Assembly (NCBI GenBank): GCA_944392315.1
Contig: CALXWH010000002.1
Coordinates: 31,441 to 95,440, forward strand
Length of the DNA: 64,000 bases
Origin: an uncultured Alphaproteobacteria bacterium
GTDB taxonomy: Bacteria; Pseudomonadota; Alphaproteobacteria; RF32; CAG-239
Direction of reading: 5' to 3'
The position numbers and the translations under genes are program-made. Below, piece after piece: positions 2,098 to 31,458 of the stretch. Position 1 is the first letter of the stretch; the number at the start of each line of letters is the position of its first letter. The notes beneath the pieces were generated by a model. That model did no database searches, was not told the DNA's origin, and worked only from the letters and a program-made list of their open reading frames with translations.

Positions 2098-4365
2098 TTG
2101 AAGGATGAAAAAATGAAGCTTAAATTAGCGGGGATTTCGTTATTGACTTTAGCTATTTGCTCAAATGCGATGGCTCAAAGTGTTATCAAAAATATTAACA
2201 TTAACGGACTACAACGTGTTGAGCGGGAAACAGCTTTGTCTTACGCCGGAATTGACACCAATAAGCAGGTTTCATCCGAGGAACTTAACCAGGCCTTAAA
2301 AAGACTTTATGATACAGGCTTATTTAGCGATGTCAGCTTTGATACAAAAGGCGATACATTAGTTATCAATGTTAAAGAGAATCCTGTTATTGGTATTATG
2401 GCTTTTGACGGTAATGATAAGATTGATGATAAAATTTTGGAATCCGAAGTTCAATCTACCTCTCGCTCTGTATTTAGCAAAACAAAAGTCCAACAAGACG
2501 TTCAGAGAATCCTTGAAGTTTATAAAAGAGCCGGTCGCTATGGCGTTTCTGTGGAACCCAAAATCATCAAAAAATCAGAGAATCGTGTGGATTTGATTTT
2601 TGAAATTGAAGAAGGTCCGGAAGCTAAAATTGATACAATTAACTTTATCGGCAACAAACACTATACGGGTGATGATTTGCAAAATGAAATTATGAGCAAA
2701 GAAAGCCGCTGGTATAGACTGTTTTCTAGTGCAGAAAATTTTGACCGCGAAAAGATGAACTATGACCAAGAACTATTAAGACGTTTTTATAATCGTCATG
2801 GTTATGCTGATTTTGCTGTTGTATCGGCTATTGCAGAGTTATCACGTGATAAAACATCCTTTATCTTAACATTTACCATTGATGAAGGTAAGCGCTATAA
2901 AGTTAATGATATTCAGATTAAATCTTCTGTTCCGGATATTGATGCCAATATGTGGTATAAGTATGTCACATTTAAGACAGATACCTGGTATAATTCCGAT
3001 GAAATAGAAAAAACAGTTAATGATTTAACAGAAGAATTGTCTCGTAAAGGTTTTGTTTTTGTAGAGGTTGTTCCAAATATCTATAAAGACCGTGAAAGCG
3101 GTAAATTAAGCGTTGTGTTTGATATTAAAGAAAATGCAAAAGTCTTTGTAAACAGAATTAACATTACCGGTAACACAAGAACTCTTGATGAAGTTATCAG
3201 ACGTGAATTCCGTATCTCTGAAGGAAATGTGTTTAATGTTGCAAAAATCAGAGAATCCAGAAGAAACGTTGAGCGTTTGAATTATTTCAGCAAGGTTGAT
3301 ATTGATACGCAACGTGTTGATTATGATAAAGCAGACATTAATGTTAATGTTGAAGAAAAATCTACAGGTTACTTTAATGTAGGTGTTGGATACTCTACTG
3401 TTAACGGGGCGTTAATCCGTGCGGGGATTACAGAAAATAACTTCCTTGGAAAAGGACAACAAGTTAGCTTGAATGCCGGCGTTTCACAACGTTCTACCGA
3501 TTATAGTTTCAGCTTTACAGAGCCGTATTTCTTAGACCGTCGTTTAAGTGCCGGTACGGATTTATTCTACCAAACAGAAGATTATCAGGATGAAAGTAAC
3601 TATGATATGGATACCATGGGTGGTAGAATTAGATTTGGTTGGGATTATACGGATGATTTGAGCCAATATATTCGTTACACCTTAAAGCAGGATAAGATTA
3701 AAAACGTTAGCAGCGCTTCTAAATATATTCAAGAAGAAGAAGGCGACGCTATAGACTCCGTTATCGGACAGACTATTGTTTATGATAAAAGAGATAATAT
3801 TCTTAAACCGCGTGAAGGTTATTACTTATCTTTCGGTAACGATGTTTCCGGTTTGGGCGGTGATGATAAATACTTAAAATTTGATGCAAAAGCCTACAAG
3901 TTCTATACACTTAATGATTACTACACCTTTAAGTTCTTCATCAACGGTGGCTATATTGCCGGATATGGTGGAGAAGATGTTCGTCTTGCTCAAAGATATT
4001 TCTTAGGCGGCAATACAATGCGCGGATTTGAAACTGGCGGTATCAGTGCAAGAGATAAAGTTACAAAAGATGCATTAGGTGGTAACTGGATGTTGTATGG
4101 TGGTGCTGAGTTAGCCTTCCCAATGGGGTTGGATGAACTTGGAATCCGCGGACGTACCTTTGTTGATATTGGTACAACCGGTAAGCCTGATAATATTAAC
4201 ACAAACGATGTTGACTACTCTTCAAGTCCTCGTGTTGCTATCGGTTTCGGTTTTGAATGGACTTCTCCAATGGGTAAGATTGATATTGACTTCGGCTTCC
4301 CGATTGTTAAAGAAGACTACGATGAAACAGAAGTATTCCGTTTGAACTTCGGTACAAGTTTGTAA
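2098..4365 (+). CDS. bamA: Outer membrane protein assembly factor BamA (Omp85), with POTRA repeats and a C-terminal beta-barrel.
   Basis: 755 aa with a signal peptide and repeated POTRA-like segments. The C-terminal barrel ends …FRLNFGTSL (aromatic-x-aromatic terminal signature). Conserved position before lpxD. Confidence 0.9.
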
Positions 4366-4384
4366 TTTTACAGAGGATATTGAG

Positions 4385-5398
4385 ATGGTTGATACTGTGT
4401 TTTATAAGCATAACGGACCTAAAACAATCAAAGAAATTGCAACGATTGCTGATGCCGTTTTGGTGACAGAAGGAAAAGAAAAAGAGCAGATAGAAAATGT
4501 CTGCTCTATCGACTCTGCTGGGAGTAATGACCTTTGTTTCTTTTATGATAAAAAAAACAAGGCAAAGGCCGCTCAGATTAAAGCAAAGGCTTGCATTACG
4601 ACTGAAGAGCTCGCTCGTTTTATTCCTGAAGGGGTGATTGTTTTAACGTGCACGAATCCGAAATTATCTTTTATTAAGTTGGTTAGCAGTTTTTATGCTG
4701 AAAATAAACCGGCTCCGCAAATTTCTCCGAATGCAACAATATCCAGTTCAGCTAAAATCGGTAAAAATTGTTCCATTGCTGCAGGCGTTGTTATTGAAGA
4801 TGATGTTGTTATCGGAGATAATTGTGTTATTGAGCCAAATGCAGTTATTGCGCATGGTTGCAAAATTGGCAACAACTGCCGAATCGGCAATAATGCGAGC
4901 ATTGCTTATTGCTTGATGGGGAATGACTGCTACATCTATACAGGCGCCAGAATCGGGCAAGATGGTTTTGGTTTCTCGGTTGTTAATGGACAGCATAAAC
5001 GTATTCCGCAAATCGGGCGTGTTATTATCGGTAATGACGTTGAAATCGGAGCTAATACTTGCGTTGACAGAGGGGCTCTGGACGATACGATTATCGGAGA
5101 TGGGTGTCGCGTTGATAATTTGGTTCAGATTGCTCATAACGATAAAATTGGGAAATGCTGTATTCTTGTTTCTCAGACAGGTATTGCAGGTAGTTGTACA
5201 TTTGGGGATTATGTTGTTTGTGGTGGACAGACTGGCTTTGCAGATCATTTGAACGTCGGTAGCGGCGCTCAAGTTGGCGCTCAATCCGGTGTTATGCGTG
5301 ATATTGAACCCGGTGCTATTGTTATGGGAACACCAACGGTTCCGTTCAAAGATTTTATGCGCCAAGTTGCGTTTTTACAAAAAAATAGTAAAAAATAA
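4385..5398 (+). CDS. lpxD: UDP-3-O-acylglucosamine N-acyltransferase (left-handed beta-helix, hexapeptide repeats).
   Basis: Long run of hexapeptide repeats (…[49 protein letters not shown]…). Located between bamA and fabZ. Confidence 0.85.
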
Positions 5399-12614: not shown

Positions 12615-15137
12615 TTGGGAGATTGTGTATTGAGAAAAGGTAAATTAGAAATTAGCGATGAGATGAAAAAAGCTAGATTGAAACTTTCTATTGAGCATTA
12701 TATTAAATATTTCATCGGTAAAAGAACTTGCGAAGTTACAAAAGAAGAGGCCCTTTATGCTATCTCTTTGGCAGTTAGAGAATTTGCAATGGATGAAATG
12801 TACAAAACCATGGCTCGTTATAACGAAAAATCTGCCAAGAGAATTTATTACCTATCTATTGAATATTTGATTGGGCGCTCTTTGGAAAATAATTTACATA
12901 ACCTTGGTTTGTATGATTTATTAAAAGATATCAAGATTGACGGTTTTCCGGATATTTCATTAGAAGAAATTTTTGATACAGAATATGACCCAGCGTTGGG
13001 TAACGGCGGTTTGGGTCGTTTGGCTGCTTGTTATTTGGACTCTATGGCTTCTTTGGGATTGCCTGGGTTTGGATATGGTATAAATTATCAATTCGGCTTG
13101 TTTAAGCAAAAATTTGAAAATGGTTGGCAAGTTGAGCAGGCTGATGATTGGTTTTCTGATTTTTCACCTTGGGAATTAGCAAGACCAGACAGACAAGTTA
13201 CCGTTCCAATGTTTGGTAATGTTGAAACATATAAAGATGCTAACGGCAAAGATACTTATGTTTGGGCGAATACTCAAACGCTTTATGGCGTTCCGTATGA
13301 CTTTCCGGTTGTCGGATATGATGGGAAAGCCGTTAACTATTTACGTTTGTTCTCGGCGAAAACCGATGATGAATTTGACATAGATATTTTCAACAACGGT
13401 GGCTATATTGAAGCGGTGGAAGATAAAATCAAGACAGAAGCTATTTCTAAAGTTCTTTATCCTTCCGATGCTTTAGAATCTGGTAAAGCACTTCGTCTTT
13501 CTCAACAATATTTCTTCGTTTCTTGCGCTATTCAAGATATTTTCAGAAGATTTTTGGAAAAGAGTAACGACTTTGACAAATTGCCTGACGCTATTTGTAT
13601 CCAACTAAACGATACTCACCCGGCTTTGGCTATTGTTGAAATGATGAGACTCTTGATTGATGTTTATGGACAAGAATGGGAAACTTCTTGGAACATTGTT
13701 ACAAAAATCTTTGCTTATACAAACCACACTTTGTTGCCGGAAGCTCTGGAAACATGGCCGGTTAAATATTTTAAGCATATGTTGCCGAGACATTTGCAGA
13801 TTATTTATGAAATTAACCGTCGGTTTATTGAATTTGCAAAGACTAAATTTGGCGAGACCAGTGAGAAATTAGCTAAAGTTTCTATTGTTTCCGGTGACGG
13901 TGATGCACAAATTATCCGTATGGCTAACTTGTCTATTGTCGGCTCATTCTCTGTTAACGGTGTGGCAAAAATCCACTCTGAGCTGATTAAGACCTCGCTT
14001 GTGCCTGAATTTTATGAATTATGGCCGGAGAAATTTATTAACATCACAAATGGTATTACGCCAAGACGTTGGTTATTGCATGCAAACACGAATCTGTCTA
14101 ACTTGATTTCTGATAAAATCGGAAAAGACTGGATTTCTAACTTAGATTTGTTGACCAAGATTGCTGATTATGCCAACGATGCTGATTTTGTTAAACGGTT
14201 TAGCAAAATTAAGAAAATCAACAAAGAATTACTGCGACATGAAATCTTTAAAAAGACAAATGTTGCCGTTACGACCAATAGTATGTTTGTTATTCAAGCA
14301 AAGCGTATTCATGAATATAAGCGTCAGCTTATGGCCATTTTGCAGGTTATCGGCGATTATTTGGCAATTGTGCGCGATAATGTTCGTCCGATTTGCCCCA
14401 AAACATATATTTTTGCCGGTAAAGCTGCGCCGTCATATACCTTTGCTAAGTTAATTATCAAATTGATTAACAACGTAGCAAATGTCGTTAATAATGACCC
14501 GAAAGTCGGCGACTCGCTGAAAGTGGTATTTGTTCCGGATTATAAGGTTTCTTTGGCGGAAATTCTTATTCCGGCGGCTGATGTCAGCTTACAGATTTCC
14601 ACCGCAGGTTTTGAGGCTTCCGGTACGGGTAATATGAAATTTGCCTTAAACGGCGCTTTGACTGTTGGTACATACGACGGTGCTAATATTGAAATTCGTG
14701 AAGCCGTTGGCGAAGATAACTTCTTCCTCTTTGGATTGCGCGAAAACGAAATTCAAGAGATGCGCCCGACCTATAATCCACGCAAAATTTATGAAGATTC
14801 GGAATATGTTAAGCGTATTTTGAACACATTAACTTCTAATCTGTTTTGTGAAAAAGATGCGCCGTCATTGTTTAAGCCGATTTTTGATGAATTGCTTAAC
14901 CGCGACTACTTCTTTGTTTTGGCGGATTTGGAAGCCTTTGACAAAGCAATGGAAGAGGCTGAAAAAGCATATCTTAACAAAGAAGAATGGGCGAAAAAAG
15001 CTATTTATAACGTGGCCAGAGTTGGCTATTTCTCCAGTGACCGCGCGGTTAGAGAATATGCTGAGAAGATTTGGCACGTTCAAAGCTATGATTCGGATGA
15101 TGATTACATTGCCGAAGATGAAGCTAAATCTGCTTAA
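12615..15137 (+). CDS. glgP: Glycogen/maltodextrin phosphorylase (GT35).
   Basis: 840 aa with GT35 signatures, including the PLP-Lys region (…EASGTGNMKFALNGALTVGTYDGANIE…). The start could be a downstream Met. No glgA/glgB/glgC nearby. Confidence 0.9.
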   Translation: MGDCVLRKGKLEISDEMKKARLKLSIEHYIKYFIGKRTCEVTKEEALYAISLAVREFAMDEMYKTMARYNEKSAKRIYYLSIEYLIGRSLENNLHNLGLYDLLKDIKIDGFPDISLEEIFDTEYDPALGNGGLGRLAACYLDSMASLGLPGFGYGINYQFGLFKQKFENGWQVEQADDWFSDFSPWELARPDRQVTVPMFGNVETYKDANGKDTYVWANTQTLYGVPYDFPVVGYDGKAVNYLRLFSAKTDDEFDIDIFNNGGYIEAVEDKIKTEAISKVLYPSDALESGKALRLSQQYFFVSCAIQDIFRRFLEKSNDFDKLPDAICIQLNDTHPALAIVEMMRLLIDVYGQEWETSWNIVTKIFAYTNHTLLPEALETWPVKYFKHMLPRHLQIIYEINRRFIEFAKTKFGETSEKLAKVSIVSGDGDAQIIRMANLSIVGSFSVNGVAKIHSELIKTSLVPEFYELWPEKFINITNGITPRRWLLHANTNLSNLISDKIGKDWISNLDLLTKIADYANDADFVKRFSKIKKINKELLRHEIFKKTNVAVTTNSMFVIQAKRIHEYKRQLMAILQVIGDYLAIVRDNVRPICPKTYIFAGKAAPSYTFAKLIIKLINNVANVVNNDPKVGDSLKVVFVPDYKVSLAEILIPAADVSLQISTAGFEASGTGNMKFALNGALTVGTYDGANIEIREAVGEDNFFLFGLRENEIQEMRPTYNPRKIYEDSEYVKRILNTLTSNLFCEKDAPSLFKPIFDELLNRDYFFVLADLEAFDKAMEEAEKAYLNKEEWAKKAIYNVARVGYFSSDRAVREYAEKIWHVQSYDSDDDYIAEDEAKSA

Positions 15138-23834: not shown

Positions 23835-24566
23835 TTATATTTTTGGAGTACGTTTGCGCTTGTAAAATACCTTGTATATGTCAACAAACATAACATTGAA
23901 AAATATGGCTAAAACGGAAATAACGTATATATGGCTATTTATTTTAAAGGCTATATCAATTGCGTACGAAAGTATGCATAAACCACTCATAAATAGGCCG
24001 CATCCGACAAAATTCCAATAATTTCCTTGAGTCTTTTTATAGGCGTCAAGAATTGAACGACTCTTGCCTATAACTGATGATAACCATGCTAAATAAGGGC
24101 GACTTATTGTATATGGCGACAACAATAGCATTAAAATATAGAATAATGTTTTACCTAGCAGAGAATCGTGGCTTTGCAATATTTCCATATAATTTTCAAA
24201 AAATTCTAAGTACTTATCCCTAAACCCCATAAACAAAGGAATATATGGAGCAACAACCAGCACTAAGTAGATGCTGATGTTTATAAACATTATCTTGCTA
24301 GCTGGTATTAAGCCGTTAAAAATCCTTATGAGGGAGAAATATGGCGGATGTTGCTGAATATGGCGAATAAAGATACACCAATAAACATAATATCCCACTA
24401 ACCATAAAATACTTAAAGAATTTGTCCATCCGTTTGGAATTAAAGAAAAAGCATAAAGGAAAGCAAAATTTACTAAAGTCCAAAGAATAAAAGTTCTTTT
24501 ATAGAGCAGTACGAACTTCATACTGCTCTTGATTGAGGACAATAGAGAAAAACTTTTTGCCTCCAT
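23835..24566 (-). CDS. Polytopic inner-membrane protein (about six TM helices), last gene of the VirD4-centred operon.
   Basis: Hydrophobic helices throughout. The ORF overlaps the VirD4 stop, so the Met at MEAKSF (~24566) is the likely start. No family recognised. Confidence 0.5.
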   Translation of the reverse strand: MEAKSFSLLSSIKSSMKFVLLYKRTFILWTLVNFAFLYAFSLIPNGWTNSLSILWLVGYYVYWCIFIRHIQQHPPYFSLIRIFNGLIPASKIMFINISIYLVLVVAPYIPLFMGFRDKYLEFFENYMEILQSHDSLLGKTLFYILMLLLSPYTISRPYLAWLSSVIGKSRSILDAYKKTQGNYWNFVGCGLFMSGLCILSYAIDIAFKINSHIYVISVLAIFFNVMFVDIYKVFYKRKRTPKI

Positions 24567-24576
24567 TGCGGAAGAT

Positions 24577-26796
24577 TTACGCTTCGTCTTCTTCAAAACC
24601 TTCCTCTTCTTCTGCATTAGGATCATAATCTATACCTAATTTTGACAAGATATCTTCATTTTCATCCGTTCTTTGGGCCACAATCCAATCTGGAACCCAT
24701 GGTGAATGTGGCAATTTAGACATTGCCAACATTTTTTTATCCAGATAAAAACGAGGCGCATCTGCCATAATCGGTGTATCAATTGAGCCTTGCATCAACA
24801 CTACTTGTTTTAGCATCGGCAAGCTCAACAAGTCATTCGCGCTTATGGCTGAAACACCTTGTAGCTGATAACTTACGTTTTTAGCAAACGGATTGTACTC
24901 TTTAGCCAAACTTCCTTCTTGTCTGCTGTATGACGTTGTTTGTACCGTTTTGTTACCAATCATTTTGGAGAAACGTTGGGCTGTTTGTTCGTTGTTTTGA
25001 GACAAAATAACTTTACATGCCGTTGTTGAAATTACTGTTTCTAGGTCATCCTTTCCATATTTACCGGAAATTTGACCTAAGTCTTGTCCAATCAGCAAAT
25101 AAGATACTTTTTGACCACGACCTACCGCAGGACCATCAATTACCGCTTTCAACTTCGGCATTTGCGGAAACTCGTCTAGCACAAACAAGGCAGGAAATGG
25201 TCCCATCTTGCCATCAGTCGGGTGTACTGAGTTTGGCGGATTTGAAATCAAGTATGCACTAATTAAATCCACAAATGTTGCACTAATCGGGTTTAAGGCT
25301 TGTGCATCGGTTTGGTTAACAGACAGATATACAGAAATAGGTTTCCATTCTCCGGTTACAGGGTCTTTCATTCCGCGCAGATCTTTAAATTGAATATCGG
25401 AAAAACTTGTTCTCGCAACAACAGCAGAGTTTTTGAAAATACCGATACCCGTTAAACCGGTTGACATAACTGAGCCACGCTCTTTATCCGGCATCGCACT
25501 CAACGCACTCAACTCTGTTACGCAACGACGTGAATAGCCATAATTATTGGCTTCTTCCACCGCAGCGTCAAGCAAATCACGCATTGGATCTGCCATTGCG
25601 GCCATTTGGTCGCCTTCTTCTAAACGACGTTTAATCTCGTTTGCTTGCTCAATTTGTGAGGAGGTAATCCATTCCAAAATCATCGCCATACATGGTTCAT
25701 GATTTACCCATTTATCTGGTAATAAATTCCATGTTCCTATCGGCAAATAATTTTCTATAGTTAAATTACCGTTTTGTAAATCTTGAATCGCTCGTGCAGC
25801 ATTTGCTCGCAAGCCACCAATGCTCATATCATCATAGTATTGCATTAGCTCGGCTTTGTCTTCTGCGGTCATTGAGCCTTCATATATTTTTTGAATAAAG
25901 CGCTCATTGGCCAGAGCTCGTTCGCATTTTGATGATATAAAGTGAATAAATCCACACAACGCACTACGACCGGTTTTTGACCAGTGAGGGTCTGCACCAC
26001 CTTTTGGATCTTCCACTAACGTATTGCACATTGAGTCAACATACAAATCTCGGTCAGGACCTGGTTTTGGTAAAGCCCCCGGTGATAGAGGATTCCAGCT
26101 CGGATAGTATTCACCCGTTGCAGGGTTATCTTCTTTACCCCAGTTAATCACAAACACCGGACCTACTTTGCTTCTCGCTCCTGTTGTTTGATAACATAAC
26201 TCAGGCTTCGGGTCGTTCACGATAATACTTAATCCTTCTGAATTAAAAATTGTCGGAATTACGACACCTGCCGTTTTACCAGTTCCCGGAGGCGCACAGC
26301 ACAAAGTTGACAATGTTTCTTTCAATTTCAGCATTTTACCTTGGAATTTTCCGACCACCATGCAAAAACCGTCAAATCCAAGCAGAGGCATATTTTCAAT
26401 ATCTCGTAAGGTTGCAATATGCGCAGAACCATGAATGTTTGATTGGAATTTATATGGACACTTTATTCCGCCAACCAATAAAATGATTGGAAAAGATAAA
26501 AATGGCAGAATCGGCGGCCATAAACTTATTTTAAACTCTCCACTGTAATGGTATATTTTTCTAAACCATCTCATATACCACTCCCATAAGTATCCGAAGT
26601 CTCCTAAGGATTTTTTCAAGAATATTCCCGCAACCTCCATACTCTTTTTAGATATGCCGTTTTGCATTAAAAAAGCAATTATTGGCGATAAATAAAGAAA
26701 TGCTACGGTTACCGCTACTGATATGGCAAAAGTTATTGTCATCCAGCGCACCGCGTTATCATATTCTTCCCACTCTTTTCCTCTTTCTTTTGCCAT
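24577..26796 (-). CDS. virD4: Type IV secretion coupling protein (VirD4/TraG/TrwB family ATPase).
   Basis: Two N-terminal TM segments, Walker A CAPPGTGKTAGVVIPT, Walker B FVLDEFPQMPKL, an IGQDLGQ motif and an acidic C-terminal tail …EEEEGFEEDEA, all typical of T4 coupling proteins. 739 aa. Confidence 0.85.
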   Translation of the reverse strand: MAKERGKEWEEYDNAVRWMTITFAISVAVTVAFLYLSPIIAFLMQNGISKKSMEVAGIFLKKSLGDFGYLWEWYMRWFRKIYHYSGEFKISLWPPILPFLSFPIILLVGGIKCPYKFQSNIHGSAHIATLRDIENMPLLGFDGFCMVVGKFQGKMLKLKETLSTLCCAPPGTGKTAGVVIPTIFNSEGLSIIVNDPKPELCYQTTGARSKVGPVFVINWGKEDNPATGEYYPSWNPLSPGALPKPGPDRDLYVDSMCNTLVEDPKGGADPHWSKTGRSALCGFIHFISSKCERALANERFIQKIYEGSMTAEDKAELMQYYDDMSIGGLRANAARAIQDLQNGNLTIENYLPIGTWNLLPDKWVNHEPCMAMILEWITSSQIEQANEIKRRLEEGDQMAAMADPMRDLLDAAVEEANNYGYSRRCVTELSALSAMPDKERGSVMSTGLTGIGIFKNSAVVARTSFSDIQFKDLRGMKDPVTGEWKPISVYLSVNQTDAQALNPISATFVDLISAYLISNPPNSVHPTDGKMGPFPALFVLDEFPQMPKLKAVIDGPAVGRGQKVSYLLIGQDLGQISGKYGKDDLETVISTTACKVILSQNNEQTAQRFSKMIGNKTVQTTSYSRQEGSLAKEYNPFAKNVSYQLQGVSAISANDLLSLPMLKQVVLMQGSIDTPIMADAPRFYLDKKMLAMSKLPHSPWVPDWIVAQRTDENEDILSKLGIDYDPNAEEEEGFEEDEA

Positions 26797-26817: not shown

Positions 26818-28119
26818 TTAAGCCAAACTACGTATAAGTTTTTTAAGTTTTTCAAATGTGTTTTTATCTGTTTTTTCTTCACAATTGTCTAAAGATTTGG
26901 AGAACAAACGAATCTCTTTTGGACTTCCTCTGTTGATACGTGTCACATTGATATTCATATTGTTCCAAATTTCAAACATATCTTCCGCATTTATGATGTT
27001 GCCAGATTGAATAATTACGTACGATACTATCTCAAAATTCATATCTCCAACAGCAAGTTTTGTTTTTAATATATCGCGAGCTATGTCTACTTTTCTTACC
27101 GGAGAAATGCGATGACTACTCTCTGAAAACCATAACGGTTCTTCATCATTAAATTTCTCTTCATCGGCTAACCAATCACCTATTTCTTTATCTACCAAAC
27201 ATAGAATAAGCTGATTTTTTGATACCGCAACATAATCTATTGTTGTATTTTTGATTATTGCAGAGGGAATTACATCATATCCTTTTTGATTAAGCACATC
27301 TAACACCGGTGTATGTGATTCTTTTATTGGGGCGGGTGTCTGATTGTCTTGCTGTCTGTTCTTTTGCTGATTGTCTTTCTTATTATTTGAATTTTGCCCT
27401 TTATCTTGGTGTTGAGGCTTAGAGGTAAATTCAGGTTCTTTCTCGTTAACTATTTCTGCTTCTATTGTTTCCGGTTTATCAACTACAAGGGCTGATGGAA
27501 TATCATCATCTATATCGGGCTTCTTATCTTTTTTCTCAAAATCAAAATCTAAATCAAAATCATCATCGTCAAAATTAAATAAGGCATGATTTGTCGGAAT
27601 CTCTGCATTATCTTTTTTAGCTGGGGTATACGGTGATGCAGTTCTTGAATTCAAATTGCTGTTTATATTGGATTGCAATAACGTTGCTGAAGGCAATGGG
27701 GGTCTTTTCATTGGAGCTTTTTTGATAATCGGTGTCTTTTTTACAACTTTAGGCTCTTCTGCTATTGATTTTTTCTTAACAACAACGGGAGCTTTTGTTT
27801 TTAATGTGATTTTTCTGAATGCATACAACGGACTCAAAACGACTTTTTTAACCAGTCGTTCCCATTTGACCAAACATAGCCCTACCCAACCTGCTATCCA
27901 CAAAGGAATTGAGCTCACAACAATCATAAAGAAACCTAATTCGGAATTACTTATTGGCGCTCCGCTGTTCCATTTATACCCTAGTAATCTCCAATGCTCT
28001 GCTAATAAGATATCAAAATGCCAGTTAATCAGCAACAAAACCCGAATGCCATCTATGAAGACTATACTCCATAAATAACCTACTATCAGCGTTTTTAATA
28101 TTATTATTAGCGGTTTCAA
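26818..28119 (-). CDS. Membrane-anchored protein with a Lys/Pro-rich disordered linker, an acidic DFD repeat and a C-terminal globular domain.
   Basis: N-terminal 2-3 TM helices, then KKxPxxKK repeats, then an FNFDDDDFDLDFDFEKKDKKPDIDDD acidic stretch, then a ~200-aa C-terminal domain. No motif matches VirB10, TonB or TolA C-domains. Confidence 0.5.
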   Translation of the reverse strand: MKPLIIILKTLIVGYLWSIVFIDGIRVLLLINWHFDILLAEHWRLLGYKWNSGAPISNSELGFFMIVVSSIPLWIAGWVGLCLVKWERLVKKVVLSPLYAFRKITLKTKAPVVVKKKSIAEEPKVVKKTPIIKKAPMKRPPLPSATLLQSNINSNLNSRTASPYTPAKKDNAEIPTNHALFNFDDDDFDLDFDFEKKDKKPDIDDDIPSALVVDKPETIEAEIVNEKEPEFTSKPQHQDKGQNSNNKKDNQQKNRQQDNQTPAPIKESHTPVLDVLNQKGYDVIPSAIIKNTTIDYVAVSKNQLILCLVDKEIGDWLADEEKFNDEEPLWFSESSHRISPVRKVDIARDILKTKLAVGDMNFEIVSYVIIQSGNIINAEDMFEIWNNMNINVTRINRGSPKEIRLFSKSLDNCEEKTDKNTFEKLKKLIRSLA

Positions 28120-28171: not shown

Positions 28172-28684
28172 TTATTGTTTTTCATTTTCCTCTATTTTTG
28201 CAGCAATTTGTTTTCTTAAATTTGCCGCTTCATGTGATGCCCCTTTGTTTCCGCCTTCTTGTTCTATTTTATCTTTTATTATTTCATCCAATGTTTTATC
28301 CTTTGAACCTAGATTTTTTATAGATACATGTTCTATTTCCATATTTTTGGGGCGAGTTAAACGTCTATATAGCGTAATAAACGGTTTTCCGAAAAATTTG
28401 CCTAGGCCATATTTGTAGAGTTTGTAACTAAGGATCAACCATGCTATGGGTAGTAATATTAAGCACACACCTAAACTACAATCACGAAATGTATTGAAAA
28501 CGCCGCCGTTTTCCCAATATTCATACATTATTCTATATGATTGAATATTGAAAATATCAAATTTCCATAACAACTTAAAAAGAAATTGCCCAACATAGGC
28601 CAATACAACAAAAACAATTATACTGCTAGATAAAAATCTTATCATTTTACCTATTTTTTTCATATTTAGCTCCTTATCTTCCAA
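28172..28684 (-). CDS. Small two-TM membrane protein with a charged cytoplasmic tail.
   Basis: Two hydrophobic helices followed by a K/E-rich C-terminus. Overlaps the upstream gene by 11 nt. Confidence 0.45.
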   Translation of the reverse strand: MEDKELNMKKIGKMIRFLSSSIIVFVVLAYVGQFLFKLLWKFDIFNIQSYRIMYEYWENGGVFNTFRDCSLGVCLILLPIAWLILSYKLYKYGLGKFFGKPFITLYRRLTRPKNMEIEHVSIKNLGSKDKTLDEIIKDKIEQEGGNKGASHEAANLRKQIAAKIEENEKQ

Positions 28685-30287
28685 ACCTATATTCTCTTAT
28701 AGCCTTAGAAAATTGCTTTTCGGTTAACGTAAACTCATCTTTTTGGGTGGCAGCTTGTCTTTCTGATATTTTTTGGCCGTTTATTTCAAAATTATCTATT
28801 GCTTTATTTATTTTTGCAACGGCTTCTTTGGCTTGTTTGTGTTTGCTGCGGTCATTGATGTTTTTCTCAATGATTTTATCTGTTTCTACTTTTGCTGCTT
28901 TGCCGGCATTATTAACCGAGGTCAGGTATTGCTTGATATTTTCTTTTATTGTTTCTGGATTATCTCTGTTTGCCTCGTGTATTTTATCTATATTTTCCAT
29001 CAATTTTTGGTAATACTGTTGGCTGCGCTTTTGGATGTGTGCTTTTATTATTTCTTCATTATCAATAGCATCCTTGCTTGCCGTCCTTACTTCTTTGATT
29101 TTTTCAGATACTTTTTTCCTTATTTCTGCGATTTTTTTGCCGTCATTTGCAATTTTACTAATTTCTTCTAATTTCTTGTTAATTTCTTTACATGCTGTAT
29201 CATCTCCGCCTATTTCATTTTGTAATTCTACAACCTCCGTTGCAATGTTCGTTTTTAATTGACTGATATCTAAACTTTTATTTTTTATAATTTTTTCTAA
29301 ATTATCTAATTTATCTGAAAACTCTGGAGATATTACATTTTTTGCACCACTTATTACTTCTTCTATCGTGGCTAATCTGGTGGCTATCGTAAATATTTTT
29401 TCTTCTTTTGCAAAGCGGCCGGCTACAATTTCTTTATCTACACCTAAACCATACTTTTGCATGAAATCAGCTTCAGGTGATGATGGATCTGCCATAGCTT
29501 TTTCTTGGATTTCACATAATTTTCTATAAAAATCCGGCTCTCTACCCCATAACACCCATGTTGGAGCAATGCCATCTTTTGTTTTAGCAAGATTTTCATT
29601 GAGCTCTATAAGTTTTTCTTTTTCTTTTGCAAATCTATCTGCCCGTTCTTTGTAAAATTCATCACCTATCATATAGATATTTTTTTTGGCCTTTTCTTTT
29701 TTTTCTTCAACCTTACCTCCAGATTTATAAGGTGCAAATAACACCCACTCTGCAAAATCTAATGTGTTGTCCACAATGGCATCTATTCCCCATGCATAAA
29801 ATGCCATAATACAATCATTCCAGAAAACTTCCATAATATTATCACCGCCGGATTTTCCTTTTGTTCCGCCTCTGTCACGTTTTGGCGGTACAATAGAACC
29901 TTTGGATACAACATTTTTTTCTTTCTTATCTTTCGGTGCTTTGGTATCAAACCCCTCTATTGGCATTTCATCGTAAGCTCTTGATATGCCATCAGGTGTT
30001 CTTTGCGGCCTTCTCGGTTGTGGTTGAGGGGATTCTGGCTGATTTTGAGAGGTTTCGTCTTGATTATGATTATTTTCTCTATTTTCATTAGAATCTGTTT
30101 GTGTAGCCTCTGTTTCTGTGGTGGATTCGTTGGCATTTTCTGAGTTAGATTGTGTCTCAGATGTTTCTGTTTCACTACTTAAAGAATTTCCATCCATGTG
30201 GAGATTTTCTTCAATTTGTTTGTCTATCTCTTCTGACAGTTTTTTATTTTCTTTATCTAAATCATCCATCTGAGAATTGGTTACCAT
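28674..30287 (-). CDS. Large acidic protein with a low-complexity N-terminus and a coiled coil (537 aa).
   Basis: N-terminal S/T/E/N/Q-rich region (…ETETSETQSNSENANESTTETEATQTD…PQPQPRRPQRTP…), one hydrophobic segment (IMEVFWNDCIMAFYAWGIDAIV), then a long K/E heptad-like region. Confidence 0.5.
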   Translation of the reverse strand: MVTNSQMDDLDKENKKLSEEIDKQIEENLHMDGNSLSSETETSETQSNSENANESTTETEATQTDSNENRENNHNQDETSQNQPESPQPQPRRPQRTPDGISRAYDEMPIEGFDTKAPKDKKEKNVVSKGSIVPPKRDRGGTKGKSGGDNIMEVFWNDCIMAFYAWGIDAIVDNTLDFAEWVLFAPYKSGGKVEEKKEKAKKNIYMIGDEFYKERADRFAKEKEKLIELNENLAKTKDGIAPTWVLWGREPDFYRKLCEIQEKAMADPSSPEADFMQKYGLGVDKEIVAGRFAKEEKIFTIATRLATIEEVISGAKNVISPEFSDKLDNLEKIIKNKSLDISQLKTNIATEVVELQNEIGGDDTACKEINKKLEEISKIANDGKKIAEIRKKVSEKIKEVRTASKDAIDNEEIIKAHIQKRSQQYYQKLMENIDKIHEANRDNPETIKENIKQYLTSVNNAGKAAKVETDKIIEKNINDRSKHKQAKEAVAKINKAIDNFEINGQKISERQAATQKDEFTLTEKQFSKAIREYRFGR

Positions 30288-30366: not shown

Positions 30367-31458
30367 TCAGACCTTTAACTTTTTTATAAATTCTCCTATT
30401 TTTTGATTAGCTTTTATACCATCTTCAGGGGTTACTTTGATTAACCCAAAGAATTTAGGGCGAATCTTATCAAATTCTATTGGAGAAAACATTGCCGGAT
30501 TCTTGGTCAGGGCTTTATAGGCTCCTTCTGTATCTTTTTGCGCTGCCTTAAAATAATTTCCAATCAATTTTTCTGCATTGATTGGGAAATTCTTTTCTTT
30601 TAATTTTTTAATAAAAAGAGTGCGTCTTTCTTGTAATTCCATGTATTCATCGTATAGCTCTTTTTTTATTCTATTTTTCTGAACGATTTCTTTCTTTTGC
30701 TCATAACTTACTTCGCATATCTCTAAATTTATCAAAATTTCAACATAAGATATGATGGCTAACTGCATATCTGTATCATTTAAACTTTCTGCGAAAGTCA
30801 GATATTCTTCATCACCGGCATCTTTGGAAAGTCTTTTCATATTTTCAGGGTCATATTTATTTAGGATATCCCAGCAATCTAATAGATATTGTGCAATTTT
30901 TTTGCCAATGCTCGGTTTGTAGTTCGGATATAACAAGTCTTCTGTATAATCGGTATCTGGCGTTTTTAAATTCTTTTTTTCGGCCAAGGCTGTAATTCCG
31001 TCCCTAAAATTGGTTACTGCTCTGGCCAATTCTTTCTCTTCATCTTTTAATTTAGATTTTTCTTCGGGCACAACTTGTTGTTTTACAACTGTTATGTTTT
31101 GTAAATCAGACAAATTATTTATTGTTTCTTGCGGTGCGGTATTCTCTACTTTATTTTGCATTGGCTGAGAAGTTGTGCCCGGAGTATTGGTTTTAGCTTG
31201 TTGGGGCGTGTTATTCGTTGTTATAAAACTATCCAATCCGCTTCCTGCCTCAGACAAGAAACTATCTAGAGTTTCTTCTTTTGCTTCTTCATTCTGTGGT
31301 ACTGCAGTTTCTTTACTTTGATTTATAAAATCGTTTAGTAGCTTTGCAAATTCATCTTCTATTTTAACTGTTGTTGATGGTTCTTCTTTTTCTTCTGTGC
31401 TTTGTTTTTCTACGCTTTGATTCAAAAAATCATCTAATGACTTTATATCATCACTCAT
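30367..31458 (-). CDS. Acidic cytoplasmic hypothetical protein (363 aa).
   Basis: No TM segments. Disordered acidic N-terminal half and helical C-terminal half. Overlaps the upstream small gene by 8 nt. Confidence 0.5.
   Translation of the reverse strand: MSDDIKSLDDFLNQSVEKQSTEEKEEPSTTVKIEDEFAKLLNDFINQSKETAVPQNEEAKEETLDSFLSEAGSGLDSFITTNNTPQQAKTNTPGTTSQPMQNKVENTAPQETINNLSDLQNITVVKQQVVPEEKSKLKDEEKELARAVTNFRDGITALAEKKNLKTPDTDYTEDLLYPNYKPSIGKKIAQYLLDCWDILNKYDPENMKRLSKDAGDEEYLTFAESLNDTDMQLAIISYVEILINLEICEVSYEQKKEIVQKNRIKKELYDEYMELQERRTLFIKKLKEKNFPINAEKLIGNYFKAAQKDTEGAYKALTKNPAMFSPIEFDKIRPKFFGLIKVTPEDGIKANQKIGEFIKKLKV

Follow-up and report, generated by a model that had tools for sequence, protein, structure and literature searches.

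In a 64,000-nucleotide stretch of contig CALXWH010000002.1, from an uncultured alphaproteobacterium (this whole stretch is called the window below), we analysed a gene for a 433-amino-acid protein, here named t433, that lies directly ahead of a gene for a VirD4/TraG-family type IV coupling ATPase (T4CP). Our results point to t433 as a putative dedicated inner-membrane partner of a VirD4-type coupling ATPase with a fixed place on the chromosome, that is, an adaptor or regulator resembling DotM of Legionella in its role, though built of unrelated parts. We put the probability of this reading at about one half. The protein, which belongs to the inner membrane of uncultured gut Alphaproteobacteria, has not been described before, and its family has no Pfam model. 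As a T4CP partner it would be of a new type; it lies outside the DotM, TonB/TolA and VirB10 families.

The open reading frame (ORF) of t433 occupies positions 26818–28119 on the reverse strand, as do all window features given below other than a strandless DNA repeat; it starts with TTG and has GGAG upstream. Two predicted membrane helices are followed by five segments, namely a basic Lys/Pro-rich segment (residues 85–143), a polar stretch, the acidic/aromatic motif HALFNFDDDDFDLDFDF (178–194) with its tail to IPSALVVD, a linker (217–266) and a C-terminal domain. We found no match for t433 itself in Pfam or NCBIfam, and a profile of it gave nothing usable against PDB sequences. Orthologues were compared in an alignment of 27 sequences, down to 58% identity to t433, in which only residues ~212–265 vary freely. 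Alignment and AlphaFold2 (AF2) together delimit a variable low-complexity linker rich in Lys, Asn, Gln and Glu (217–266; positions 27322–27471). A preliminary description of this DNA had pictured a membrane-tethered, flexible arm that presents an acidic patch. The AF2 model, in which residues 111–269 are disordered (predicted local distance difference test, pLDDT, below 50), and the strong conservation of the acidic motif both agree with that picture.

Linkage of t433 to a coupling ATPase

The T4CP gene (24577–26796) encodes 739 amino acids and lies 21 nt downstream of t433. ORF coordinates and Pfam matches thus bear out the preliminary description, which had placed t433 just ahead of a VirD4-like gene at this same distance. 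The T4CP matches the Pfam models T4SS-DNA_transf (7e-53), TraG-D_C (2e-22) and TrwB_AAD_bind (3.5e-17), and carries a P-loop (PPGTGKT), a Walker B motif (VLDEF) and hydrophobic N-terminal helices at residues ~16–43 and 90–108. It scores under the NCBIfam equivalog cut-offs and has no sequence match in PDB, whether the query was the sequence alone or a profile, so we consider it a member of a divergent clade.

Among 82 loci of the window's own clade, the T4CP directly follows t433 in 81, and the sole exception is a contig end. Identity to the window proteins across these loci is 62–100% for the T4CP and 38–96% for t433. The gene order is rpoH <- rluD <- / u363 - (u537) - u170 - t433 - T4CP, and the module is flanked by housekeeping genes, e.g. 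ligA, rluD and rpoH. The T4CP also follows a t433-like gene in five deeper lineages (loci L085, L088, L090, L093/L094 and L096), where the t433-like proteins are 24–33% identical to t433 and the T4CPs 51–58% identical to that of the window; the ATPase is therefore the more constrained member of the pair. In these lineages the two genes are co-oriented, with a gap of -8 to 23 nt, or 163 nt in L096. As the flanking genes differ between lineages while the pair stays together, the t433–T4CP pair itself is the conserved unit. Because t433 is genetically locked to a coupling ATPase in this way, a role in the coupling complex is the best reading of the protein. The preliminary description had suggested such a role, with effector docking and ATPase regulation as candidate functions, and the suggestion of a role in the complex stands as the best reading by virtue of the linkage in 81 of 82 loci and five deeper lineages.

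Membrane hairpin and topology

The N-terminus of t433 (residues 1–94; 27838–28119) is a two-helix membrane hairpin by hydropathy, AF2 and the positions of invariant residues. Hydropathy places the helices at residues ~4–29 and ~66–84, so that of the two or three transmembrane (TM) helices proposed in the preliminary description, two are retained and the third is not. AF2 views the same region as a single helical hairpin (2–52 and 58–107, pLDDT 75–86). Between the TM helices, residues 30–65 form a short, aromatic-rich and highly conserved turn, predicted to be periplasmic, with W33, H34, F35, D36, H42, W43, W50 and G53. The residues best conserved in the t433 N-terminus sit in this turn, which suggests that it makes a specific contact at the interface of membrane and periplasm.

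The basic juxtamembrane segment (85–143; 27691–27867) has a net charge of +15, with 18 Lys and Arg residues and 3 Asp and Glu residues. It contains a degenerate xP(V/I)(V/I)KK repeat and a family-wide KKKSxKxxRP element, and is conserved among orthologues. Since two TM helices leave both ends of the protein on the same side, and since a charge of +15 after the second helix, against -1 in the turn (counted as 29 residues), satisfies the positive-inside rule, the prediction is that the entire tail lies in the cytoplasm. This would put the Lys-rich segment, acidic motif and C-terminal domain on the side where the ATPase domains of the T4CP are.

This topology changes how the Lys/Pro repeats are to be understood. 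The preliminary description had seen KKxPxxKK repeats forming a TolA/TonB-like spacer and had left the side of the linker to topology prediction. A Lys/Pro repeat segment does exist, but hydropathy and the positive-inside rule place it in the cytoplasm and not in the periplasm, where such a spacer would belong. We rejected membership of the TonB/TolA group on three grounds: there are two TM helices, not one; the tail is predicted to be cytoplasmic; and there is no TonB_C or TolA match. Membership of VirB10/TrbI was likewise rejected, as there is no Pfam match to the TrbI/VirB10 C-terminal beta-barrel domain. The C-terminal domain is hence not the VirB10 or TonB C-terminus that the preliminary description had named as the finding that would undo its proposal.

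An acidic/aromatic motif under purifying selection

The alternating acidic/aromatic motif of the preliminary description is present as HALFNFDDDDFDLDFDF at residues 178–194; it continues into EKKDKKPDIDDD and then into IPSALVVD. We treat the whole as a bipartite short linear motif (27472–27588), with HALFNFDDDDFDLDFDF as its first part and IPSALVVDKP (207–216) as its second, on the basis of orthologue conservation and codon counts. Thirteen of its residues are invariant in the 27 orthologues (H178, A179, L180, F181, N182, F183, D187, F188, D189, D191, F192, P208 and L211). The repeat is thus neither absent nor variable in orthologues, the outcome that the preliminary description had associated with a neutral expansion.

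Codon comparisons lead to the same conclusion. When the 17 motif codons of 34 orthologous loci are compared with those of the window, there are 142 synonymous and 26 non-synonymous differences, and an identical motif peptide is written by 16 DNA versions among 17 loci. As the codon differences are mostly synonymous and one peptide is encoded in so many ways, the motif peptide is under purifying selection, well beyond chance, and is not a neutral expansion. At the DNA level, Tandem Repeats Finder reports a micro-repeat of TCAAAA (27536–27562; period 6, 4.5 copies), confirming a repeat already seen by eye in this region. It is merely the codon echo (GAT-TTT) of the (Asp-Phe)n run.

In distant relatives the motif is shortened. 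Clade 2, one of the sister clades, has a counterpart of the form P(A/S)F(L/M)-DDEDF-..IP.L.DI.(V/L)PE, located immediately before the C-terminal domain, and the long FDFDF run is restricted to the clade of t433. Within the motif, then, the expansion alone is lineage-specific.

Three known peptides were considered as models for the motif and dropped: the FtsZ C-terminal peptide (compared with 'PAFL' in clade 2 and 'IPSAL' in t433), the AP2-binding FxDxF peptide, and the tail of SSB, whose tip, DFDDDIPF, invites comparison with DIDDDIPS in t433. We make no claim of mimicry, because each likeness is by eye, the motif is internal and not C-terminal, and only '(D/E)x-IPSAL' is conserved at that place.

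The T4CP itself ends in a conserved acidic tail with Phe, …DYDPNAEEEEGFEEDEA (24577–24700), similar in character to the t433 motif. The tail and the motif could compete for one basic surface, e.g. the +15 segment of t433. Known contacts of coupling proteins do involve acidic/aromatic tails: in the F plasmid, the C-terminal …DDF tail of the coupling protein TraD binds TraM.

A probable diverged NERD-like C-terminal domain

The C-terminal globular domain (residues 267–433; 26821–27321) was defined by Pfam, AF2, Foldseek and conservation. At ~165 amino acids it is smaller than the ~200 first estimated, although a domain is present where one had been expected. Its family signature is GDWLADEE.FNDE.PLWFSE..HR.SPV…G.IINAEDM..W. 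The Pfam NERD model (PF08378) matches 15 of the 27 orthologues at E<=1, weakly or below threshold, with a best value of 3.4e-5, and there is a precomputed PF08378 match on one homologue; t433 itself has none at E<=1. An AF2 model of the domain alone, built with 58 diverse sequences, is confident (pLDDT 93.5; predicted TM-score 0.88), and its secondary structure runs alpha, four beta strands, a small beta hairpin, alpha, two beta strands, alpha, beta.

Foldseek searches of PDB returned weak matches (best E 0.02, TM-score <=0.47), with no close solved structure. The coherent matches are all nucleases of the restriction-endonuclease-like fold: Nt.BspD6I, EndoMS, the R2 RLE domain, Card1 and AF1548. 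Structure prediction and Foldseek, which the preliminary description had put forward as the way to place this domain, therefore gave a confident model and weak PD-(D/E)xK nuclease matches, a probable nuclease-like fold that the description had not foreseen. The apparent likeness to NERD and PD-(D/E)xK proteins lies in the order alpha-beta-beta-beta…alpha-beta and in the pattern GY.V…ID…(h)4-D-x-E-x-G, both of which fit t433.

The active site is where t433 departs from these enzymes. Candidate triad residues are D295, D310 and E312, the last being a Glu at the canonical Lys place as read from the pattern and not from a hidden Markov model alignment. Among 102 cluster representatives, D295 is conserved in 72, D/E310 in 84 and E312 in 55, so that the Asp positions are ~70–80% conserved, and no Lys is conserved at the catalytic position. 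The canonical catalytic D…(D/E)xK triad is thus lacking. In the same set S339, N377, E320, P340, W385, W330, A318 and P328 are conserved at 95–100%. The invariant residues map to the inserted beta-hairpin/loop (W316, A318, E320, P328, W330) and to two helix starts (S339-P340 and N377). We therefore regard the domain as a probable diverged NERD-like module of doubtful catalytic ability, and t433 as at most a distant, probably non-canonical NERD relative. BamHI-type sites have a D…ExE variant of the triad, and a site of this type may be present in t433. Our literature search found no paper tying a NERD domain to a coupling protein.

The same WLADEE…PLWFSE…SP domain also occurs within large soluble proteins (P0190, P0206, P0240, P0253, P0259 and P0262), which appear to contain AAA+ ATPase regions or TPR/GTPase/TIR-like regions, a reading made from the sequences alone. 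Its occurrence in soluble proteins suggests a portable module for binding, sensing or an effector function.

Distribution of the family

Public protein databases contain 1010 homologues of t433 at E<=1e-3, and 371 cluster representatives (clusters at 50% identity) were recovered by searching exhaustively with a profile. In a scan of GTDB species, the family is present in 383. Named matches are metagenome-assembled genomes of uncultured Alphaproteobacteria or Proteobacteria from animal guts, with one exception labelled Lactobacillales; the carriers include 'CAG:495', 'Acetobacter sp. 46_36', 'Azospirillum sp.' bins and UMGS1453. A tblastn search of 72,556 plasmids with t433 found no homologue, and searches of PADLOC and PHROGs gave no credible match for any of seven proteins of the operon.

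Members whose C-terminal domain scores at least 186 are linked to a T4CP in 6 of 6 cases tested, and those scoring 134 or less in 0 of 4. One solitary subfamily (two TM helices plus a WxADE domain) lies directly 3′ of atpI-atpB-atpE-atpF'-atpF, on the same strand, in two lineages (L089:7429-11284 and L095:7497-11086). Another solitary member adjoins secG and a CTP synthase gene, and one more is located elsewhere. The solitary members are thus a low-scoring, divergent fringe of the family.

Other genes of the operon and of sister clades

Directly upstream of t433 is u170 (28172–28684), a 170-amino-acid paralogue of the t433 hairpin (hhalign probability 99.2%, E 2e-19) with a short charged tail, predicted to be cytoplasmic; it is present in 72 of the 82 loci. 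Before it, in the same operon, lies u537 (28674–30287), an acidic, coiled-coil-like protein of 537 amino acids conserved only in the closer subclade. The first large gene of the conserved operon, u363 (30367–31458; 363 amino acids), is found in 73 of the 82 loci and carries an acidic/aromatic motif of its own in the N-terminal region, EDEFxxLLNDFI (D35, E36, F37, L40, L41, F44, I45), which is invariant; no relative of the protein was found in Pfam or PDB. A scan for promoters and terminators gave results not above shuffled expectation, so the operon is not defined by it. In L096, a high-GC locus, two full-length tandem t433 paralogues precede the T4CP (L096:5177-7500), and a further ORF upstream of them (4292–5155) looks by eye like a hairpin-only copy.

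In the sister clades (1b, 2, L090 and L096) two conserved genes, dsA and dsB, that are absent from the window come after the T4CP (L036-L075, ~14000-15100; L085:4278-5451; L090:3826-5110; L093:13535-14676; L094:13369-14513; L096:9846-11372). In the window's subclade, and only there, their place is taken by a 263-amino-acid multi-TM protein (23835–24626), which overlaps the T4CP stop by ~50 nt and has no family match. The dsA protein begins with 'MWEWS' and has an invariant C-terminal H…N…H..H pattern, PENxN(V/T)H(L/I)K.P…GG…N(L/M).L…H..(I/L)H. In a profile search of PDB, the top match was the HNH DNase domain of pyocin AP41, and the alignment coincides exactly with this motif; the match is weak (E 0.11). 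The dsB protein has sub-threshold SUKH/SMI1_KNR4 matches (2.4e-4 to 1.6e-2). As a lead only, the pair looks like a DNase toxin and its immunity protein beside a coupling ATPase, which would fit a type IV secretion system (T4SS) with antibacterial function (cf. PMC8740702) or a membrane nuclease device.

Clade 2 has two further genes just upstream of the t433-like/T4CP pair. One encodes a 93-amino-acid ribbon-helix-helix protein (PF13467, 2e-17; L085:95-376, L093:9400-9678, L094:9578-9859), a class typical of relaxosome accessory factors. The other encodes a DnaJ-domain protein and is divergently oriented. At L093:1282-7022, some kb upstream of the pair, there is a structural block of a T7-like phage (head-tail connector, capsid and nozzle), which is probably incidental.

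Comparison with known coupling partners

DotM (IcmP) of the Legionella type IVB Dot/Icm system offers the closest parallel. The dotM gene lies directly upstream of dotL, in DotM a membrane region at the N-terminus is joined with a cytoplasmic domain, and deletion of dotM destabilises DotL (PMC5802825). Like DotM, t433 is encoded directly upstream of a coupling ATPase and combines an N-terminal membrane region with a cytoplasmic domain, which in t433 is predicted. Recognition at the Dot/Icm coupling complex is based on charge (PMC5802825, PMC7280309), and it is here that the two proteins part. The cytoplasmic domain of DotM is all-alpha and binds the acidic tails of effectors through basic patches, whereas t433 has an alpha/beta domain of probable nuclease fold and bears an acidic/aromatic motif of its own. 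The folds are thus unrelated and the charge logic is inverted; t433 also has a disordered Lys-rich segment, and the ATPase that it would partner is not DotL but a VirD4/TraG-like (type IVA-like) one. We rejected homology to DotM/IcmP, since the domain is alpha/beta and there is no Pfam, NCBIfam or PDB sequence match.

Dedicated docking on a coupling ATPase, as we propose for t433, has precedents in relaxosome and T4CP accessory proteins (TraM–TraD) and in the XVIPCD–VirD4 interaction. The all-alpha domain of VirD4 is a docking site of partner domains, for example of XVIPCD in the X-T4SS (PMC8740702). These partners are soluble and are encoded by plasmids or effector genes; t433, by contrast, is integral to the membrane, is encoded in a core chromosomal operon and has no plasmid homologue.

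The architecture of t433 can also be likened, by description, to that of SmdA of Staphylococcus aureus, a membrane-anchored protein whose cytoplasmic domain is only partly NERD-like and lacks those NERD residues that are most conserved (PMC9040797). In both, a membrane anchor at the N-terminus is combined with a long helical or tether region and a partial-NERD cytoplasmic domain. SmdA, however, has one TM helix, is monocistronic, occurs in Staphylococcaceae, is linked to septal peptidoglycan synthesis and has no T4CP partner.

Proposed mechanism and alternative explanations

In the arrangement that we propose, the t433 hairpin would sit beside the N-terminal transmembrane domain of the T4CP hexamer, probably together with that of u170. 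The hairpin paralogue u170 and the tandem paralogues of L096 suggest a multi-copy assembly of t433-type hairpins around an oligomeric ATPase. The cytoplasmic tail would tether a nuclease-derived recognition module near the ATPase. The acidic/Phe motif might dock on a basic or hydrophobic surface, which could belong to the soluble domains of the T4CP, to the tail's own +15 segment (giving auto-inhibition) or to another protein of the operon. The nuclease-fold domain would bind cargo, either nucleic acid or protein, or gate the ATPase, rather than act as a canonical nuclease.

Several observations weigh against t433 being a partner of this kind. First, we found no VirB4/8/9/10/11-like gene in the window or within ±10 kb at ~90 loci, a search that says nothing on the rest of the genome. 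It was made by tblastn with VirB8-11, a probable VirB4 and other genes of two plasmid T4SS clusters as queries; none of them, the plasmid VirB10 proteins included, gave a match in the window or at any locus. In Rickettsiales, T4SS genes are scattered, and our literature search found no paper on a T4SS in RF32-type gut Alphaproteobacteria. Second, the plasmid T4CPs closest to that of the window (32–35% identity; from Sphingosinicella, Erythrobacter and Microvirga) manage without such a partner in the two contexts inspected: in Sphingosinicella and in Microvirga the gene is part of an ordinary virB8-9-10-11-virD4 cluster that has no t433-like gene, and the small ORF upstream of one plasmid virD4 is not a hairpin paralogue. 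Third, AF2 places the motif as disordered and not docked on t433's own domain. Finally, remote family members stand without an adjacent T4CP, so the fold family is not intrinsically T4CP-specific.

The absence of nearby VirB-like genes speaks for the strongest alternative, in which the module is no adaptor for a VirB channel. A VirD4-type hexameric translocase and a membrane-tethered nuclease-fold protein would instead form a self-contained inner-membrane device for DNA handling or defence, independent of any T4SS, which might capture, degrade or process DNA at the membrane and to which the HNH-like DNase and SUKH-like inhibitor of sister clades would belong too. We consider this possible though unlikely. 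The module lies in core chromosomal synteny, from rluD/rpoH to ligA, and looks vertically inherited; the T4CP is better conserved across clades than its partner; HNH-like and SUKH-like proteins follow the T4CP in sister clades; the WLADEE domain recurs in the soluble proteins with apparent AAA+ or TPR/GTPase/TIR regions; and a ribbon-helix-helix gene precedes the pair in clade 2. All of these would suit such a device. A core-genome position and presence throughout the clade are, however, atypical of defence islands, PADLOC and PHROGs yielded no match for the operon, and the NERD-like triad is eroded, with no conserved Lys. That domestication has turned a VirD4-type ATPase into a core-genome, VirB-independent machine that handles DNA or toxin at the cytoplasmic membrane, and so represents a new kind of system, is accordingly a tentative proposal that we hold with little confidence.

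The solitary family members raise a second alternative, that t433 is a general membrane scaffold. Much as in SmdA, it would link the membrane to the nucleoid or to the envelope and division machinery as a housekeeping function, and adjacency to a T4CP would be secondary, in some lineages. The housekeeping contexts of solitary members (after atpI-a-c-b'-b in two lineages, and beside secG and the CTP synthase gene) are consistent with this, as is the architectural parallel of TM anchor, long tether and diverged cytoplasmic NERD-like domain with SmdA (PMC9040797). We nevertheless find it doubtful, and more so than the VirB-independent device, since T4CP linkage in t433's own subfamily is essentially absolute and ancient, and the solitary members form only the divergent fringe described above.

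It is also conceivable that t433 is cargo, a membrane protein substrate of the ATPase with the acidic motif as its recognition signal. Coupling complexes do recognise acidic signals (PMC5802825), the type IVB secretion system is reported to be able to export TM effectors (PMC11602083), and u363 likewise bears an invariant acidic/aromatic motif, at its N-terminus. This explanation is very improbable. The t433 motif is internal and not C-terminal, effectors usually differ among lineages, and one-to-one gene coupling, a paralogous hairpin and deep conservation suit a machine subunit better. Lastly, a periplasmic TolA/TonB/VirB10-like spacer or a neutral low-complexity expansion, which draws only on the superficially Lys/Pro-rich, repeat-like look of the sequence, is contradicted by the predicted cytoplasmic tail, the lack of any TonB_C, TolA or TrbI/VirB10 match, the probable nuclease fold of the end domain, the purifying selection on the motif and the conservation of the basic segment, and hardly merits further consideration.

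Implications

Coupling ATPases decide which cargo enters type IV systems, and few of their partners (DotM/DotN/IcmSW and TraM-type proteins) are understood. The family described here is unannotated and is paired one-to-one with a VirD4-type ATPase in uncultured Alphaproteobacteria that are widespread in animal guts. As a partner, t433 would represent a new solution, in which a selected acidic/Phe motif and a nuclease-derived domain are combined with a membrane hairpin. Residues E320, S339 and N377, which are invariant, and the 17-residue motif lend themselves to mutagenesis.

The t433–T4CP pair also raises the question of whether a T4CP can work from within a core chromosomal operon when no VirB channel is encoded next to it. 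If a VirB-independent machine is the true explanation, the pair would define a new type of system and not a T4SS accessory. If a channel exists, the HNH-like/SUKH-like pair of the sister clades would point to interbacterial delivery of a DNase in the gut.

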